The notes under the pieces were generated by a model, which saw only the letters and a program-made list of their open reading frames with translations, searched no databases and was not told the DNA's origin. This document shows positions 4,813 through 62,496 of a stretch of 64,000 nucleotides of DNA, piece after piece. How positions within the stretch are numbered: position 1 is the stretch's first letter; the number at the start of each line of letters is the position of its first letter. The stretch covers positions 44,042 to 108,041 of IMG/VR virus record IMGVR_UViG_3300031998_000032, one strand, 5' to 3'. The translations under genes and the position numbers were made by a program. Source of the DNA: a virus (taxonomy: Duplodnaviria > Heunggongvirae > Uroviricota > Caudoviricetes).

Positions 4813-4884
4813 GAGAATATAGCTCAGATGGTAGAGCGATGGGGACTAACCCATGCGTCGCGGGTTCGAGCCCCGCTATTCTCA
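4813..4884 (+). tRNA. tRNA-like gene with a clean cloverleaf except a 6-nt anticodon loop 'GACUAA' containing CUA (or a 4-bp stem with an 8-nt loop)
   Basis: Acceptor gagaata/tattctc, D-arm 'tagctcagatggtagagc', T-arm 'gcggg-ttcgagc-cccgc', 5-nt variable loop. Total 72 nt, one short of canonical. Confidence 0.5.
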
Positions 4885-5029
4885 CACAACTTCTTTTTTT
4901 CGCAAGGTTTGGAATGTAGCAGACCCATAAAAGTCCGTGAGGATCAGGGTTTAGTAAATCGCTTTTTTGGCAATAATTGATTAGTAATTAAGTTTGTTGA
5001 AGTCAGCATTGGATGCTCACGGAGACACC

Positions 5030-28073: not shown

Positions 28074-29432
28074 TTACTGGCGGGCCTCAGCGCAGATACG
28101 TCGCACTTCGTCCTCAGTCGATACCAAGACCTTGGCAGAACGTTTCCATCCTTCGCCTTTGACCTCACCGAGACAGCCGAGTGCCACCATGTCATCGAAG
28201 TCACGCATAGCCGACTTACGGGACAGGAAATAAGGCCATATGCCGAAGCTGGCCGGAGTGACCACCTCATAGTTAAGCGCAAACACACACATCAGATCCT
28301 CGGTACCCTTTGACACGTCAATATGTTTCTTTTCAGAAGCTGTTGACGGCAGATAAAGAACGGAAGAATAAGTGCTCTGATACATAACGTCAAGCTGACG
28401 TACATTACGTGTCACATACTCGGTATCGGCGAAGCCACACTGTAACCTGATGTCATCAACACCGTCAGAGTAAATCATGTCACCCTTGCCGATGAGGTTC
28501 TCCGCTCCGGTATGGTCGAGAATGACACGTGAATCCACTCCGGATGCGACGCGAAAAGCGATACGTACCGGAAAGTTTGCTTTGATGTTGCCTGTCACGA
28601 TAGTAGCGGCCGGCCGTTGGGTTGCGATGATCATATGTATGCCGACCGCACGTGCTTTCTGTGCGATGCGGCAGATGAGCAGCTCTACGGGCTTGCCGCC
28701 TGTCATGATAAGGTCTGCGTATTCATCAACGACAACGACCAGGTACCGCATGAACTCCTCACCTTTGCACAGGCCGTCATTATACTCACCGATATTGCGC
28801 ACACCCTTGAGTGAGAGTAGTAGATAACGATACTCCATGAGTTCCACAACACGTTGAAGCGTCTCTATGGCGCTATCGGTTGATGTGGCGATATAGTCCG
28901 CCAGATAACGGCCGTATAAGCTTTCATAGACAGACAACTCAACCTGCTTTGGGTCGATGAGTGCTATCTGCATCTGCTCGGGTGACCGTCTGTTCATCAT
29001 TGAGAGCAGAAGCATATTCAAGCATACTGACTTACCTTGACCGGTGGCACCGGCAATAAGCAGATGCGGCATATCAGCCAGGTCACGCATAAACATCTGT
29101 CCGTCGACGGTCTCGCCTATAGCACACGGCAACTTCATATCGGTTGTCGTATATCTCGTGTCGGACAAGATTGTTTCAGCATGGACTATCTGCCGTTGCT
29201 CATTGGGTACTTCGATACCAACCGAGCCGTCCTGCATAGGTGCTATGATACGTACCGCCGGTACGCCGAGTGCAGTTGCTATCTCGTCTTTCAGGCCACG
29301 TATACGTGAGATACGTGTACCTATGGCCGGATGAACGGTGTAGAGTGTGACAGTACTACCGCGAGTCTCCTTGATATCTTCCACCTTCACCTTGAAGGTC
29401 TTGAAGACTTCCATAATAGTTTCTTTGTTCAT
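28074..29432 (-). CDS. FtsK/SpoIIIE-family DNA translocase ATPase
   Basis: 'LLIAGATGQGKSV' (Walker A), 'IALIDPKQVEL', 'LVVVVDEYADL' (Walker B), 'GIHMIIATQRP'. Confidence 0.75.
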   Translation of the reverse strand: MNKETIMEVFKTFKVKVEDIKETRGSTVTLYTVHPAIGTRISRIRGLKDEIATALGVPAVRIIAPMQDGSVGIEVPNEQRQIVHAETILSDTRYTTTDMKLPCAIGETVDGQMFMRDLADMPHLLIAGATGQGKSVCLNMLLLSMMNRRSPEQMQIALIDPKQVELSVYESLYGRYLADYIATSTDSAIETLQRVVELMEYRYLLLSLKGVRNIGEYNDGLCKGEEFMRYLVVVVDEYADLIMTGGKPVELLICRIAQKARAVGIHMIIATQRPAATIVTGNIKANFPVRIAFRVASGVDSRVILDHTGAENLIGKGDMIYSDGVDDIRLQCGFADTEYVTRNVRQLDVMYQSTYSSVLYLPSTASEKKHIDVSKGTEDLMCVFALNYEVVTPASFGIWPYFLSRKSAMRDFDDMVALGCLGEVKGEGWKRSAKVLVSTEDEVRRICAEARQ

Positions 29433-43817: not shown

Positions 43818-44117
43818 TTATTCCACCAAACACGGATTGTGAGAATAGCAACTCAGAAGAATTTCGTAGAATCCTTTCCGATAACCAGCTTCGCGACATT
43901 CAAACAAAGCAGATTTGATATAGCACATATAATCCAGCTTGCGGTCTTGCTCGCTGATAAGTTTGTTTGTGCGCCAAGAATCCAAATGAACTTTCTTTGC
44001 GGTTTCAAACCAATCTTTCGCTACTTGCAAATATTGCGTAACTTGCGACGTAACCGGCAGATGCGAATAAATGCCGTTTTTCTCTTCGCAATAGAGATAT
44101 TCAATGCAGTAATACAT
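43818..44117 (-). CDS. small hypothetical protein (99 aa)
   Basis: ORF plus box 'ttttaagtgttagacaat'. Confidence 0.45.
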   Translation of the reverse strand: MYYCIEYLYCEEKNGIYSHLPVTSQVTQYLQVAKDWFETAKKVHLDSWRTNKLISEQDRKLDYMCYIKSALFECREAGYRKGFYEILLSCYSHNPCLVE

Positions 44118-56120: not shown

Positions 56121-57032
56121 TTATTGATTGATTATTTGAAAATAGAAGCCATTAATCAAAGCTTGCCGTGAAGCTGCATAAGTCGCACTATAAAGATAAT
56201 TCCGGTTTAAACCATTATCACGTTCAGCGGCCTTTATTGAGTCGTAAACAAATACTACATTTCCATCGTGATCTTTCTTTATAACTTTTCTCTTTTGGCC
56301 TTTAATGCGATGATTGGCTTCTCTGTATCGAAATACCTCTCCTGCAAAAACAAAAACAAATCCATGATAACTTCTATTTCGGCCTCTACAAACATTTAAA
56401 GCTGCTCTTCTTGATATTCCATCCTTTTCCATATCAAAAGAACAATCATAATGCTTGATAAAGTTACCCTCTAAATCATACATATCAACAGGAGTCGCAT
56501 TTCCGCTTTTTATCAACGTTTTTCTTGAACGCATCTTTACGGTACCATAGATGTTATTGTATAGATAAGAAGCCCATTCTAAGTTTGATGCTTTGTTGTT
56601 GCTCTTGTTCTCATCTTTATGATTTACAGTTGGTAGTTGCTGGGGATTAGGTATAAACGCTGTGGCTACCAATCTGTGAACATATTCCATACATTTTTTG
56701 TTGTGTATGTATATCTTAACAACAAAATAACCATTCCCATTGTTGTACTCTTTTAATATGCGCTCGGGGTAAAATTGATTATTGGAATTTGTTCTGCTTT
56801 TTACTTTTACTCTCCCTAAATTACTTACTTGACACAATCCGGCAAAGGATTTTGTCTTTCTCCATATTTCACCCTCAAAATCTTCTAATGAGAGCCAACG
56901 AGCTGAGTTTACAGCATAGTCTTCAATTCTATCCATTACTTCTGATGTTAAACGACTCTGATGATTGAAAAAATGAGGAAAGCCCATCAGATTAGCCTTG
57001 TCAGCAGGGGTACTAAGTCTGCCTATCCTCAT
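56121..57032 (-). CDS. HNH homing endonuclease (NUMOD4 + HNH_3 + two NUMOD1-like repeats), paralog of 11113..11721
   Basis: 'CQVSNLGRVKVKS', 'HRLVATAFIPNP...VNHKDENKSNNKASNLEW', 'VVFVYDSIKAAERDNGLNRNYL'. Confidence 0.7.
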   Translation of the reverse strand: MRIGRLSTPADKANLMGFPHFFNHQSRLTSEVMDRIEDYAVNSARWLSLEDFEGEIWRKTKSFAGLCQVSNLGRVKVKSRTNSNNQFYPERILKEYNNGNGYFVVKIYIHNKKCMEYVHRLVATAFIPNPQQLPTVNHKDENKSNNKASNLEWASYLYNNIYGTVKMRSRKTLIKSGNATPVDMYDLEGNFIKHYDCSFDMEKDGISRRAALNVCRGRNRSYHGFVFVFAGEVFRYREANHRIKGQKRKVIKKDHDGNVVFVYDSIKAAERDNGLNRNYLYSATYAASRQALINGFYFQIINQ

Positions 57033-57974: not shown

Positions 57975-59738
57975 TTAGCGTGTTGCGTTCCACTTGCGCC
58001 AATTGTTACGGCCTTCGTAATTGCCGTTCTCATCCCAATCACGTCCGCTGCGGTTGGGACGGCCCTTACCACGTCCGGTGGCTACAGAGAATTTCTTCTT
58101 GCCGGATACTTTCTTCTGACCTTCGTCATTGTTCTGCTGTATCCGGTTCTGCGCTTTTGCCACTTCAATCTGTTGGTCGGCCTGTATCTCGCTGAGCTGT
58201 TCTTGCATCTCAACGTTGGCGTCATTTTGGATTTCAATACGCTGCTCTTCGAGAAGCAACTGATTCATCATAGCATCATGCTCTTCGTTGCAGATACGCT
58301 CCCATTCGTTCGGAGTAGCATACGGGCTCTTCTCTGCGGCTGTCTGACGCGAGAGGAACTTACCGACAACGGATGTGTTGAGGTTCTGCGTGAGTTCGGT
58401 CGCGTTGACGTGGATGTAAGGCTCCAGGAAATGACGTATGTTGGTAGAGATGAAGTCAAGACGCATCTCAACTTCAATACCATACCCCCATGTGAATATC
58501 TGAACCATATCATCCACACAGCCGTCATACTCCTGTGCGTCATTCATCGCCTTCTCGTATGCGTCTGAGTACATGATCTTCAGGGCTACGCCCGGAGTAT
58601 CACCTGACTTCAGCTCAGGAGTCTTGACGGCAAACGACTGCTTGTAGATAGCATCCTCAACCTTATCCAACTCAGCCTTGTATGCGTTACTTGCATCCTG
58701 GCGCTGCAGGAATCCGATCTCACCATCCTCCGGAAGCATCATGATCTTGGATGCGTAAGACATATCGGCGGTAGTAACCTCCTCGGAGCCCTCACCTTTC
58801 ACATACATGATAGGCAGGCCGAAGTCATGGTTGGAATGTGCGAGATTGGAGAACGCAATCTCGTAGTTCTCGATACTCTCTTCTGAGAAGGTCCAACATG
58901 GTCCATTGTCATCACGCATATAAGCGACTGGTATGCGGTTGAAGCCGTGACTTTCCTTATACTCGAGTTTGTAGCCGTCGGTGGAGAAGAGCTTGAGTAT
59001 TATCTGCTTTGCCTTGTCGATGATATTGGTTGCATCGCCGTCAGCGACGAAGCGGTAGTAATAAGTGTCATCCCATACGTCGATGTAACGTTTGGTAACG
59101 CTGCCGTCTTCCGAGTAGTTGCAGTATGTACGTGCGAACGTGCTGAGCTTACCGGTCCGCAGGTCGTAATGCGGATAGAGACGGTCACCGTCCAGGAATG
59201 ACAGTATCTTCCATCCTAACTTGCCGTTATCCATATATCCGACCATGGCGCCGTCACCGGTCGCCTTGACCGATTTAGCCAGCTTATACCATGCCACCTC
59301 CATGTTCTTGTTGGCCCATCCGTTACGGAAGGCGATGAACACGTCACGACTTTTATCCGTCACCTTTGTATCTGACAGCTCAAACTGTATGTCGTTGCCG
59401 CACAGATGCGTGAGGTGTTTGACGAGGATGATCTGTTGGAAGGCGAAGGCATAACGCGGAATCTCCTGGATATACCAACGTCCGTCCTCCTCGTTCTGTT
59501 GCCATACATCAGGAAAGAGCTCCTTGTCATAGATGAGGTGTCCGGCCGGATCAAGTTCGCGCAGGAAATCCTCCTGTGTGACAATCTTACGACGCAGCCG
59601 GTCCTGAGTCACCGGTATTTCGGTGGGTTCATTGAACACATACCCGTGGTCGTAATGACCGTCGGGAAGTATTCTCGTAAAGGGCTTCTTGGTGAGAAGA
59701 TCCCTCAACTCCTGTTTTTTGTCAAGTGTTACAGCCAT
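57975..59738 (-). CDS. Portal protein (putative, SPP1-like)
   Basis: 587 aa, directly downstream of the large terminase, with a Q/E-rich C-terminal region. Synteny-based call. Confidence 0.5.
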   Translation of the reverse strand: MAVTLDKKQELRDLLTKKPFTRILPDGHYDHGYVFNEPTEIPVTQDRLRRKIVTQEDFLRELDPAGHLIYDKELFPDVWQQNEEDGRWYIQEIPRYAFAFQQIILVKHLTHLCGNDIQFELSDTKVTDKSRDVFIAFRNGWANKNMEVAWYKLAKSVKATGDGAMVGYMDNGKLGWKILSFLDGDRLYPHYDLRTGKLSTFARTYCNYSEDGSVTKRYIDVWDDTYYYRFVADGDATNIIDKAKQIILKLFSTDGYKLEYKESHGFNRIPVAYMRDDNGPCWTFSEESIENYEIAFSNLAHSNHDFGLPIMYVKGEGSEEVTTADMSYASKIMMLPEDGEIGFLQRQDASNAYKAELDKVEDAIYKQSFAVKTPELKSGDTPGVALKIMYSDAYEKAMNDAQEYDGCVDDMVQIFTWGYGIEVEMRLDFISTNIRHFLEPYIHVNATELTQNLNTSVVGKFLSRQTAAEKSPYATPNEWERICNEEHDAMMNQLLLEEQRIEIQNDANVEMQEQLSEIQADQQIEVAKAQNRIQQNNDEGQKKVSGKKKFSVATGRGKGRPNRSGRDWDENGNYEGRNNWRKWNATR

Positions 59739-59739
59739 A

Positions 59740-62496
59740 TTATTGAATAATATTACGTTTTATCGGTGTTAATTTTCTAACTGAACGTATGTTGTTGCTT
59801 TTCTGCAACCAGGACGGAACTGCAACCTGCGAGTGTTTGATATCGAATATCTCACGCTCGAACAAGGCCTCGAAGAAGTCGGGTGAGTGACCGACGACGG
59901 CTTTGTTCTTCATCTGCTCCTTATGTATCAGACACCAACCCTTATCCGCCTTTGACATATCCTGCTTGACGCATTTGCGCTCGGTCTGCAGAATGGCGTA
60001 CAGTGTCTTTGTCTCTTTGCCAATCTTGTATTTGCGTTGCAGCAATGTCGGCTCGATGCTCCATCCAGCCTGCTGTGTGCGCTCGGCAAACTTATAGGCA
60101 CATTGGGATTTCTTGTTGTCATAGAGGTTCTTGTCCCGTGTTGCCACAGCTTCAACGTTATTGAACGGCACGGCACGCGGGAACGCACCTTTGAGGACCT
60201 GGCCCATACCGTTGAGGTCATAGGTAAAGTTCTCCTGCAGCACACCCCATTCCTCCAGCTTCGCCTGTATAAGTGATGCTGTAGTCAGAGGGTCACGGCG
60301 GCACACATATACATCAGCGACGTGCCATCCTATCCACAGCCAGGTGACACAGTTGTCACCGCCGTCACCGGCGACGTCACAAGATGCACGCTTGATACGG
60401 TCACCGAGCATCTGTGCGTTCTGAAAAACTTTATCAAGGTGATGGGCCTGTATCATGTCATCGCCCATCTTTATGATATCCCAGTTGCCGTCGAACTCAC
60501 GGGCCCGGACTTCCGGCGGTTGGTTGAGTAGGTTGGCTATATAGGCCGGGTCGTTCTTGAGAAGTGCTTTATTGTCTTTGAGTGACGCCTTGATGAAGGT
60601 CACGCTCTTGACGAAGAATGAAGTCTTGGTGTATCCGTATTGCTCCCATTCGGGGTCCCATGCGTCATCGATCATCTCCTTACACTGCTCATAGACCTCC
60701 TCAGGTGTATCACCCCATATGATGTTATCCACCGAGTCATCCGGCATATAGCAGTAACGTATCTTGCCGTCACGTTCGGGGATAGCGAAACCCTTACGTT
60801 CAGGGTGCATCAGACCATCGGAGTATATAGTGTCTTCCTTACCTATCCACCAATCGATGAACTTACGCAACCACGACATAGGATCAGGGTTGCAGGTGCC
60901 AAGCATACGTGAATGTACTCCGATGGTGTTTCGGTTGGCCGTCATGAGGAATTTAAACATCTCGAACGGCATCTGCGGCAACTCATCGACTCCAATATAT
61001 GCGAACTGTTGACCACGAAACTTGATATCGAAATCCGACATCGGCATATCATATATGGTCAGGCCGAGTTTGGCGCCGGTGTTGAAGTTCCATGTCATAT
61101 CATCCTTCGACTTGTTGTATCGGCCCAATCCTGTAAACCAACGCTTGCTCTCGTTGATGATATTCTCGAAGTCATCCTTGTTCTTACGGAAGATGATGCC
61201 GTTGAAGTGTTTGTTCTGAATGTCATAGATTGGCTCCATGAGCATCGTTATGGTGTTATGGTTGACGGTGTAGGCGTCAGTCATATAGAGATGGTCACGT
61301 CCGGTGACGGTGATACAGCGGCAATTCTGCTTCTTTGAACTCTTGGTGATATATTGGATTTTCTTGGTGAGGATATTCCTGCAGTTCGGGCTCTTTGGCT
61401 TCTCTGCGTTGATGAGTGCCGCCTTCTGGTAGCAAGGATGTGTCATAAGCTCCTTGTTATCCGGTGCCACCATCGTAACTTTCCACCATCCTATCTTGGT
61501 GGGCTCGTCTTCTATCTGTGTGACACGTGCCCATATACCGAGTGAGCGCACCACTTCGGCTATATCCTCGATGAGGCGTTTGTTAGGCATGGCTACGAAC
61601 GGATGCAGGTCTTTCGACCGACCGTTTCTCATCATCAGCCCGTGTATGTATTCCCATCGTGACTGTATGGATGCATATTTGTATTCAGCCGGGATGCACG
61701 CCAGCTCCTCTTGGCGGCAGCACGTGAATTTACGTCTCTTATCGTCATCGAGACCTTTGAGGAAGTAATAGCCGGTATCCATGTTCTTGCGGATCTTATA
61801 TCCCATGAACTTGAATTTTTTGGCCATAAAACGGTTGTTGCCGACATTCAGTCCTGCTGTTGAGAAGTTCCATGTACCCTGTGCGCAGGTCCATCCAAGC
61901 AGGAACGGATGTAACGGCAGGTCGATAGGCGTAATCTTCTCGTTCAGCTCCACCTCACCGCACAGAGGAATTTCTACAAGCGGCGAGCCGGCCTTACGCA
62001 GTGACAGCGGATAAGGAATGTCAATCTTGTAAAGATTCATGATGTCTCGAGCGGTCATCTCATGGAAGTCTTCCGTCGGAGATGTGCGGGCCCAGAATCT
62101 ATGGTTATCCATACAACTCAATGTGGTGCCGTCATCAAAATGAAAGACATAAACGGTGTTTTCACCCTGCTCGAATATTTCACTTACTTTCTGCACGCCG
62201 TTGTAAGGAGTGCATATCAGATCGCCGACCTCCAAATCACCCATTCGGCGGAATCCCGACGGGGTGGCCACCGGTGTGCAATAAGGGTTGGCTTTACCGC
62301 CGCCTCGGTTCCCACCGAACACGGTGATGTCAGCAACGCCGCTCAATCCGTTCTCCTGAGCGCCCTGCTGTGCAACGAAAAATTTGGATTTCTTCCCGAA
62401 GTCTTCGGTCTCGCGGAGCTGTTGCAGATAATCGTGCGAATAGATGTTTTTTCCATCTATTGTCTTCAGCCCCGTGTAATCAGACGTGCTATTCAT
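59740..62496 (-). CDS. terL: Terminase large subunit, interrupted by an intein
   Basis: 'GGNRGGGKA' P-loop region, Walker B 'AYIGVDELPQ'. 918 aa versus ~570 expected. Intein signatures inside (see next feature). Confidence 0.8.
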   Translation of the reverse strand: MNSTSDYTGLKTIDGKNIYSHDYLQQLRETEDFGKKSKFFVAQQGAQENGLSGVADITVFGGNRGGGKANPYCTPVATPSGFRRMGDLEVGDLICTPYNGVQKVSEIFEQGENTVYVFHFDDGTTLSCMDNHRFWARTSPTEDFHEMTARDIMNLYKIDIPYPLSLRKAGSPLVEIPLCGEVELNEKITPIDLPLHPFLLGWTCAQGTWNFSTAGLNVGNNRFMAKKFKFMGYKIRKNMDTGYYFLKGLDDDKRRKFTCCRQEELACIPAEYKYASIQSRWEYIHGLMMRNGRSKDLHPFVAMPNKRLIEDIAEVVRSLGIWARVTQIEDEPTKIGWWKVTMVAPDNKELMTHPCYQKAALINAEKPKSPNCRNILTKKIQYITKSSKKQNCRCITVTGRDHLYMTDAYTVNHNTITMLMEPIYDIQNKHFNGIIFRKNKDDFENIINESKRWFTGLGRYNKSKDDMTWNFNTGAKLGLTIYDMPMSDFDIKFRGQQFAYIGVDELPQMPFEMFKFLMTANRNTIGVHSRMLGTCNPDPMSWLRKFIDWWIGKEDTIYSDGLMHPERKGFAIPERDGKIRYCYMPDDSVDNIIWGDTPEEVYEQCKEMIDDAWDPEWEQYGYTKTSFFVKSVTFIKASLKDNKALLKNDPAYIANLLNQPPEVRAREFDGNWDIIKMGDDMIQAHHLDKVFQNAQMLGDRIKRASCDVAGDGGDNCVTWLWIGWHVADVYVCRRDPLTTASLIQAKLEEWGVLQENFTYDLNGMGQVLKGAFPRAVPFNNVEAVATRDKNLYDNKKSQCAYKFAERTQQAGWSIEPTLLQRKYKIGKETKTLYAILQTERKCVKQDMSKADKGWCLIHKEQMKNKAVVGHSPDFFEALFEREIFDIKHSQVAVPSWLQKSNNIRSVRKLTPIKRNIIQ
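61255..62280 (-). other. Intein within terL (~342 aa, Cys73..Asn414) with LAGLIDADG-like homing endonuclease domain; +1 residue Thr415
   Basis: Block A 'CTPVATPSGFRRMGDLEVGDLI', block B 'TLSCMDNHRFW' (T-x-x-H), LAGLIDADG-like 'PFLLGWTCAQGT' and 'EYIHGLMMRNGRS', C-terminal 'YTVNHN|T'. Checked against the DNA: codon gca(-)=Cys at 62278-62280 and gtt(-)=Asn at 61255-61257. Confidence 0.65.

Follow-up and report, generated by a model that had tools for sequence, protein, structure and literature searches.

Terminase large subunits (TerL) are the commonest intein hosts in mycobacteriophages, and the position between the Lys and the Thr of the P-loop is regarded as a 'classic' intein insertion (Kelley et al. 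2016, PMC5050341). Class 3 inteins have been described in TerL1-c, -d and -e, the TerL inteins tested splice, and some of their nucleases are active (PMC5050341). A recent preprint survey of actinobacteriophages counts 293 inteins in TerL, some of them of class 3 and with a LAGLIDADG domain (Gosselin et al. 2025, 10.1101/2025.01.02.630785). Here we describe an intein that interrupts the P-loop of the TerL encoded by a tailed phage (Caudoviricetes; IMG/VR record IMGVR_UViG_3300031998_000032, positions 44,042 to 108,041; this stretch of 64,000 nucleotides is referred to as the window). The explanation that we consider likely is that residues Ala69 to Asn414 constitute an intein that splices by the class 3 route, carries a dead nuclease, and is inherited vertically as a passenger of its phage lineage.

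Class 3 inteins lack an N-terminal nucleophile and carry a dispersed signature of Trp at position 12 of block B (B:12), Cys at F:4 and Thr at G:5, together termed WCT, usually with Ser or Thr at the +1 position (PMC2807308). In these inteins the Cys at F:4 attacks the N-terminal junction, the N-extein is transferred to the +1 residue, the terminal Asn cyclizes, and an acyl shift completes the reaction (PMC2807308). The branch-point nucleophile has been proven experimentally for the Msm DnaB-1 intein (Cys118, F:4; PMC5222942), and the Cys at F:4, His at B:10 and Thr at G:5 of MchDnaB1 have been described as a protease-like triad (PMC7664689). The signature is not absolute. In a large survey the Trp deviates in approximately 6% and the Thr in approximately 5% of class 3 members, and the 'MCT' AceL NrdHF intein still splices by the class 3 mechanism (PMC7891396). 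Mutants of the Thr at G:5 also often still splice (PMC7891396, PMC5222942).

The TerL open reading frame (ORF) encodes 918 amino acids, a length given in a preliminary description of the window and borne out by the ORF list. It matches the terminase large subunit family PHROG 979 (phrog_979, E 2e-58) from residue 415, and the Pfam family Terminase_6N (PF03237, E 3.5e-10) spans residues 415-672, with the match beginning exactly at residue 415. Within the insert there are weak Pfam matches to Hom_end and Hint_2. The only PHROG matches of the insert itself are to one terminase, one DnaC-like helicase loader and one helicase family, models that evidently include inteins themselves. The ATPase domain contains a Walker B motif in addition to the family hidden Markov model match, and the complete Walker A motif (GxxxxGK[ST]) reappears only once A69-N414 is removed. 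The predicted spliced protein of 572 amino acids has Lys68 joined to Thr415 (...GGNRGGGK|TITMLMEP..., the bar marking the junction), with ...NRGGGK-TITMLMEPIYDIQNK as the predicted ligated sequence. The corresponding fused sites in DNA are GGCGGCGGTAAA|ACCATAACGATG and GGTGGGAACCGAGGCGGCGGTAAA|ACCATAACGATGCTCATGGAGCCA.

The insertion point was determined by comparison with intein-less terminases. A megablast search of the TerL gene against 50,697 phage records gave no match, and a tblastn search with the spliced protein was needed instead. This search produced one-piece alignments that cover 94-95% of the query at 46-48% identity, to Bacteroides phage LoVEphage, related Bacteroides and Phocaeicola phages, and Dulem virus 40, all of which have TerLs of approximately 530-545 amino acids that lack the insert. 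When intein-less TerLs were aligned directly to the 918-aa precursor by MAFFT, their N-termini were pushed into the intein; this alignment was discarded, and the spliced sequence was aligned in its place. At the site the window sequence reads GGNRGGGK-ANPY-TITMLMEP, and the intein-less sequences read GGCRGGSK----TFTLLMET (LoVEphage), GGNRGGGK----SAMLLLSI (Dulem virus 40) and GGSAGGGK----TWALLMEP (a Rhizobium phage). Further intein-less representatives show GNRGGGK|SYAMLL, GVRGGGK|SAGLLM and GERGGGK|SASLLL. In all of these the Lys is followed directly by Thr or Ser (GGxRGGGK|T/S), and the residues ANPY therefore belong to the insert. The intein lies at the point where the Lys of Walker A meets the Thr/Ser, and its +1 residue, Thr415, is itself the Walker A Thr, aligning with the T/S of GK[T/S] in the intein-less homologs.

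The preliminary description had placed the insert at 61255-62280, starting at Cys73. The C-terminal junction of that interval is retained, however the N-terminal junction is four residues earlier, at Ala69. The insert of approximately 342 residues and the spliced TerL of approximately 576 residues proposed there become 346 and 572 residues, respectively. In profile-to-structure alignments the segment K-A-N-P-Y-S-T-P-V pairs with G-A-L-D-L-K-T-Q-V in the crystallized C1A construct of gp41-1 and with G-A-L-S-Y-D-T-E-I in a DnaE intein, which makes Ala69 intein position 1 and Cys73 position 5; residue 1 of the gp41-1, DnaE and Msm DnaB-1 inteins aligns with Ala69. Conservation was assessed in 119 close homologs (62-100% identity, all approximately 890-940 amino acids). 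Position 73 is highly variable in this set (S56, T14, N12, R8, H6, E4, K3, Y3, F3, A3, I3, D2, C2), and we regard the family conservation as decisive for a predicted start at Ala69 rather than Cys73. We consider the boundaries A69-N414 highly probable. The coordinates of the intein and of the other features discussed are collected in the table. The C-terminal junction also falls within an exact 8-bp tandem repeat, ACCATAAC|ACCATAAC (Asn-His-Asn | Thr-Ile-Thr), which is probably a coincidence of codon choice.

Table. Features of the interrupted TerL gene and of other loci in the window (positions are those of the window).
Feature	Position	Strand	Description
TerL precursor ORF	59740..62496	-	918 aa plus TAA stop; N-extein, intein and C-extein; from the ORF list
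N-extein, M1-K68	62293..62496	-	Ends in the Walker A segment GGNRGGGK; from alignment with intein-less TerLs
Intein, A69-N414	61255..62292	-	346 aa, corrected boundaries; insert 342-354 aa in the 119 homologs
Block A, ANPYCTPVATPSG	62254..62292	-	Ala69 is residue 1; Cys73 is the non-conserved position 5
Block B, GTTLSCMDNHRFWAR	62086..62130	-	His132 is B:10 (62101-62103); Phe134 is B:12 (62095-62097)
LAGLIDADG-fold domain, approximately aa 185-350	61447..61944	-	Probably catalytically dead
LAGLIDADG-like motif 1, FLLGWTCAQG	61876..61905	-	Catalytic acid position is Gln206; aligns with LGxLLGDGC
LAGLIDADG-like motif 2, YIHGLMMRNG	61621..61650	-	Catalytic acid position is Asn291; aligns with QGLxDTDG
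Block F, NCRCITVTGRDHLYM	61282..61326	-	Cys394 is F:4 (61315-61317), proposed branch-point nucleophile
Block G and +1, AYTVNHN|T	61252..61275	-	Asn412 is G:5, His413 G:6, Asn414 G:7, Thr415 +1
8-bp tandem repeat	61247-61262	-	At the C-terminal junction
C-extein, T415-Q918	59743..61254	-	Remaining ATPase domain (Walker B, YIGVDELPQ) and nuclease domain
Portal gene	57975-59738		Directly downstream of the TerL ORF
HNH endonuclease ORF	56121-57032	-	303 aa, free-standing; PHROG 59, E 5e-37
FtsK/SpoIIIE-like ATPase ORF	28074-29432	-	452 aa; PHROG 1358, E 2e-81
tRNA (ARAGORN call)	4813-4885	+	2-base 'anticodon', identity undetermined by the program

The insert is almost certainly a real intein. In a single-sequence comparison with the Protein Data Bank, its N-terminal 65 residues match gp41-1 (E 2e-5) and DnaB inteins. 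A family profile of 68 members strengthens the gp41-1 match to E 4e-10 and also matches Msm DnaB-1, MchDnaB1, DnaE inteins and PI-PfuI, an intein with a LAGLIDADG domain. Residues K68-T415 were modelled with AlphaFold2 from the family alignment; the model has the HINT fold and is confident throughout (predicted local distance difference test score, pLDDT, 93.6; predicted template modelling score, pTM, 0.91). The insertion is in frame at a conserved site, the homologs are collinear once it is removed, and blocks A, B, F and G are present together with a C-terminal His-Asn followed by a residue of the Cys/Ser/Thr set. Thus, the preliminary proposal of a full-length intein with Hint and LAGLIDADG-like domains in the P-loop region agrees with both sequence and fold similarity. 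It had been staked on a Hint match and on a lack of collinearity with other terminases; Hint and intein matches were found, and the intein-less terminases are not collinear with the insert. The individual elements that it listed are also present, namely the codons for Cys73 (TGC, 62278-62280) and Asn414 (AAC, 61255-61257), block B, the terminal His-Asn followed by Thr (ACC, 61252-61254), two degenerate LAGLIDADG-like motifs and the Walker B sequence 'VDELPQ'. When every window ORF of 60 amino acids or longer was searched by profile, no other intein of the same type was identified.

The splicing motifs are extensively conserved. In the N-terminal half K68, A69, N70, T74, T78, P79, H132 and F134 are invariant in all 119 homologs, as are R393, C394, I395, G399, H402, L403, Y404, N412, H413, N414 and T415 in the C-terminal half. 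Block B, in which W135 (B:13) is additionally found in 98 of the 119, corresponds in the alignment to EHLW of related WCT inteins. For block F the aligned segments are 'VRCVEV...HLYLA' in Msm DnaB-1, a class 3 intein (6BS8), and the xC[IL] motif in all related TerL P-loop inteins, and Cys394 aligns with the Asp/Cys107 position of gp41-1.

We assign the intein with reasonable likelihood to the class 3 splicing mechanism, an assignment made from sequence. A non-nucleophilic residue, Ala69, is at position 1, Cys394 is at F:4, Thr415 is at +1, and BLASTP comparisons indicate common descent with WCT inteins at the same TerL site. Because there is no nucleophile at position 1 and the Cys at F:4 is invariant, the class 3 route is the most likely one. 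Cys394, activated by His132 (B:10), would attack the Lys68-Ala69 bond, giving a branched intermediate with a thioester in block F. The N-extein would then be handed to the hydroxyl of Thr415, cyclization of Asn414 would free the intein, and an O-N shift would create the Lys-Thr peptide bond. By analogy with MchDnaB1, Cys394, His132 and Asn412 (G:5) would form a papain-like Cys-His-Asn triad in place of Cys-His-Thr.

Several observations weigh against this assignment. Two of the three canonical signature residues are absent, as B:12 is an invariant Phe134 rather than Trp and G:5 an invariant Asn412 rather than Thr; related TerL inteins have H-L-W and THN at these positions. Mutation of the Trp at B:12 impairs or blocks splicing in characterized class 3 inteins (PMC2807308, PMC5222942). 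For the N-terminal half, the sequence that matches best is gp41-1, a class 1 intein. Finally, what is seen directly is the intein itself, its fold and boundaries, how it is conserved and what it is homologous to; that it splices, that Cys394 acts as the branch point and that nuclease activity has been lost are predictions.

The match to gp41-1 is also a point in favour of a standard class 1 intein extending from Cys73 to Asn414, in which Cys73 would undergo an N-S acyl shift and leave a TerL of 576 amino acids. Cys73 is indeed present and is followed by a block A-like sequence (TPVATPSG...GDLEVGDLI). However, Cys73 aligns with position 5 rather than position 1 of the reference inteins, it is Cys in only 2 of the 119 homologs, and the other residues found there include some that are unable to act as nucleophiles, whereas Ala69-Asn70 is invariant and position 1 is therefore never Cys, Ser or Thr. 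The Thr (B:7) and Asp (F:4) typical of class 1 blocks B and F are Met and Cys here. Splicing at Cys73 would also yield GGGK-ANPY-T, a Walker A motif interrupted by four residues that occur in no intein-less homolog. We therefore regard Cys73 as an extremely improbable N-terminal nucleophile. A class 2 (KlbA-like) mechanism would use the same boundaries as the class 3 route, with the +1 residue attacking the N-terminal junction directly and Cys394 having only a structural or activating role. Ala at position 1 together with a +1 nucleophile is formally compatible with such a mechanism, and Tori and Perler point out that, for an intein with the class 3 signature, either route is in principle possible until the Cys at F:4 has been mutated (PMC5222942). 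However, known class 2 members use Cys at +1, and the invariant Thr found here is a poor nucleophile for direct attack on an amide (PMC2807308). The Cys at F:4 is invariant in this family and universal in the homologous full-WCT TerL P-loop inteins, and every tested intein that has this Cys and lacks an N-terminal nucleophile required it (PMC2807308, PMC5222942, PMC7891396). Class 2 splicing is thus unlikely, and class 3 splicing from Ala69 remains our preferred assignment.

The central part of the intein is a LAGLIDADG-fold domain. The AlphaFold2 model shows the expected alpha-beta fold with two motif helices, however the acidic metal-binding residue that should end each helix is replaced, by Gln206 in motif 1 and Asn291 in motif 2. 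Homologous WCT inteins have the canonical sequences 'PY[VI]LG[VL]LLGDGC' and 'QGL[LMF]DTDG', where the window intein has 'PFLLGWTCAQG' and 'YIHGLMMRNG'. Among the 119 homologs the acid position of motif 1 is T71/S21/K8/D8/N6 plus others, and that of motif 2 is N53/K21/S15/G8 plus others, including one Glu. None of the 119 has acids at both positions, and no acidic residue in the domain is invariant. Thus, the fold of the 'LAGLIDADG-like endonuclease' named in the preliminary description is present, and an active homing endonuclease, lacking both catalytic acids, is not supported; from its sequence the nuclease is probably inactive.

The domain does not appear to be decaying freely. Mean identity to the window sequence is 77% for the exteins, 76% and 73% for the N- and C-terminal splicing regions, and 48% for the homing endonuclease domain. 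Ratios of nonsynonymous to synonymous substitution rates (dN/dS) of 0.05 (exteins), 0.06 (N-terminal splicing region), 0.13 (C-terminal splicing region) and 0.16 (homing endonuclease domain) were obtained from a single pair of relatives, L004 and L005, which is near saturation, and are indicative only. The same ratios between the window and its relatives are not computable due to saturation of synonymous sites (pS 0.73-1.04), a further point that tempers our interpretation. With that proviso, the values are indicative of purifying selection on a nuclease-dead LAGLIDADG domain, which may be kept for folding of the splicing domain or for retained DNA binding. The element is probably no longer mobile and would be a fixed, splicing-competent, vertically inherited passenger of its clade.

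Two other readings of these data need to be weighed. With non-canonical residues, the domain could still function as a homing endonuclease or as a nickase, in which case the intein would still be mobile. This would account for its confidently modelled fold and for the dN/dS of approximately 0.16, and an Asp is kept at motif 1 in 8 of the 119 homologs. However, an activity of this kind is rather unlikely given that no homolog is acidic at both catalytic positions, that the domain has no invariant Asp or Glu, that related inteins at the same site retain the canonical GDG and TDG, and that all members of the clade with at least 50% identity carry the intein, with no empty target allele seen within the clade. 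Alternatively, the degenerate nuclease and the two deviating WCT positions might mark the whole insert as a non-splicing remnant that is kept in the mature terminase, or the gene as a pseudogene. The remnant would then split the P-loop of an essential ATPase at GK|T. In addition, the splice-site residues are invariant over the 119 homologs while intein identity drops to approximately 50%, the splicing regions evolve as slowly as the exteins (dN/dS approximately 0.06-0.13), and the ORF is intact in complete phage contigs of approximately 100 kb and in Prevotella genomes, all of which makes a dead insert or pseudogene very improbable. As the intein splits GK|T and the precursor is without a functional P-loop, the TerL must mature by protein splicing.

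An exhaustive phmmer search with the C-extein identified 2249 relatives, both intein-less and intein-bearing. Matches that start at approximately residue 35-90 are to intein-less proteins, and those that start at approximately 190-530 are to proteins with an insert of varied size. Many of the 50%-identity representatives have an insert directly after GK whose first residue is one of A, M, V, L, G, E and Q, or in one case C. These same-site inserts have a block B '[ED]HLW', a block F 'xC[IL]' and an end '[IVT]THN' followed by S/T, and thus the full WCT signature. BLASTP aligns the window intein over its full length with the same-site inteins of distant TerLs (E 1e-29 to 1e-19), which places it, as a diverged member, in a family of TerL P-loop inteins of class 3. 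One relative (P0122; 49% extein and 40.5% intein identity in global alignment) shares the variant A-N...F...C...N-H-N, and the next (P0121, 50%) is intein-less. The wider family also has a second P-loop insertion site two residues upstream (...THN|SKSFSLL, ...VHN|CGKS), occupied in the distant TerL relatives P0124-P0128, P0166, P0207, P0229 and P0269. Inteins, both mini and full-length, have thus entered this Walker A motif at no fewer than two positions in the TerL family.

The best 120 word-index matches to the TerL (62-100% identity) all bear the intein and are on contigs of up to approximately 100-135 kb, with some longer contigs that are bacterial; intein-less relatives and those with inteins at other sites came only from the exhaustive search of representatives. 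Among species-representative genomes the intein-bearing TerL is found in metagenome-assembled genomes of uncultured Bacteroidales and Bacteroidaceae and of a gut Prevotella, as well as in Prevotella sp. oral taxon 376 F0043 (L006, on a 2.07-Mb scaffold) and Prevotella sp. P2-180 (L008). All of these carry the identical signature ANxY..., NHRF[WL], CRCI, NHN|T. A relative at 48% identity in Bacteroides reticulotermitis is intein-less. The TerL homologs of L006 and L008 are within large contigs from cultured isolates of Prevotella, which suggests that prophage relatives are integrated or were co-assembled there and points to candidate hosts. None of the database proteins matched has a functional name. 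The G+C content of the intein (0.50) does not differ from that of the exteins (0.51 and 0.49) and gives no sign of a foreign origin. Taken together, the distribution indicates that the intein is fixed in a clade of Prevotella/Bacteroidales phages of approximately 100 kb and is old and vertically inherited.

Compared with the actinobacteriophage inteins, the window intein resembles TerL1-a in interrupting the TerL ATPase domain at the step from the invariant Lys to the nucleophilic Thr of Walker A. It also shares with actinobacteriophage TerL inteins a class 3 type of splicing domain joined to a LAGLIDADG domain, and in both cases splicing is required for the active site to form. However, it is hosted by a Terminase_6-type TerL from Bacteroidales phages rather than by TerL1, and the actinobacteriophage survey names TerL1-c, -d and -e, but not the P-loop inteins TerL1-a/b, as class 3 (PMC5050341). 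Mycobacteriophage TerL6 has an intein at the C-motif site only, and the window intein is at the P-loop site (PMC5050341). The nuclease is degenerate here, whereas the two nucleases tested in the actinobacteriophage TerL survey are active (PMC5050341).

Similarity to canonical class 3 structures is weak (E 1e-4 to 1e-2). The MP-Be DnaB, Msm DnaB-1 (6BS8) and MchDnaB1 (6RIX/6RIY) inteins differ from the window intein at B:12 and G:5, where Phe and Asn are invariant throughout the present clade. AceL NrdHF ('MCT'; Hoffmann et al. 2020, PMC7891396) likewise deviates at a WCT position and provides a precedent, however it is split, lacks an endonuclease domain and keeps the Thr at G:5 (PMC7891396), whereas the window intein is in one piece, departs from the signature at Trp as well as at Thr, and retains the two conserved His residues. 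The full-length LAGLIDADG inteins PI-SceI (1JVA), TliVMA (7QSU), PI-PfuI (1DQ3) and PI-PkoII (2CW8) have 12-16% identity to it; unlike the window intein they are class 1, with Cys1 or Ser1 and active nucleases that have two catalytic acids. gp41-1 (6RIZ/6QAZ) is also class 1 (Cys1, Asp at F:4), and differs further in being naturally split and without an endonuclease domain. What is specific to the window intein is the combination of a Terminase_6-type Bacteroidales TerL host, a double deviation from WCT to 'F-C-N', and a probably dead but conserved nuclease. A literature search of incomplete coverage found no description of inteins in the terminases of LoVEphage-related or Prevotella phages.

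Two further conserved cysteines are located beside the active site, Cys128 (B:6, 117 of 119 homologs) and Cys392 (F:2, 115 of 119), and their equivalents recur in many related WCT TerL inteins ('C-x-C-I', 'EC..EHLW'). By analogy with the redox control reported for Msm DnaB-1, either could form a disulfide with Cys394. The papain-like arrangement of Cys394, His132 and Asn412, these conserved cysteines, and the purifying selection on a dead LAGLIDADG domain raise the speculative idea, to which we give little credence, that the clade-fixed intein is a conditional switch on DNA packaging, with TerL maturation dependent on redox state or DNA binding. Dependence on redox state could parallel the class 3 Msm DnaB-1 intein; the alternative input could be DNA binding by the exapted LAGLIDADG domain. 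If true, such a switch would be relevant in phages of strictly anaerobic Prevotella and Bacteroides.

The TerL gene and the portal gene that follows it mark this region as a tailed-phage packaging module. Immediately downstream of the genes for portal and head morphogenesis, and still within the head/packaging module, is an ORF for a free-standing HNH endonuclease, which coincides with a patch of low G+C content (0.35, compared with approximately 0.50 in the flanks). It has the appearance of a homing-type endonuclease gene acquired in a separate event, or else of a terminase-associated HNH protein. The window also encodes an FtsK/SpoIIIE-like ATPase, distant from the packaging module. The tRNA called by ARAGORN can be read by eye as having the anticodon stem ATGGG/CCCAT and a 6-nt loop, GACTAA, which contains the amber-reading triplet CTA. 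In the stretches without ORFs of at least 200 amino acids we found no convincing sign of stop-codon recoding, and TAG is merely a rare stop (4 of 65 long ORFs).

Current concepts of inteins are unchanged by the window intein. For annotation, the TerL of widespread gut and oral phages of Bacteroidales (Prevotella), with genomes of approximately 100 kb, is a precursor with a predicted mature form of 572 amino acids, and boundaries based on Cys73 would predict a terminase with a broken P-loop. As a compact, Cys1-independent intein with Thr at +1, it may be a practical splicing tool, and as a natural 'F-C-N' double deviant of WCT with more than 100 sequence variants it could help to show which residues of the class 3 set are needed. 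It documents a fixed intein in which a homing nuclease without its catalytic acids is still under selection for its fold, and it extends the class 3-type P-loop terminase inteins from actinobacteriophages to the Terminase_6-type TerLs of Bacteroidales phages.

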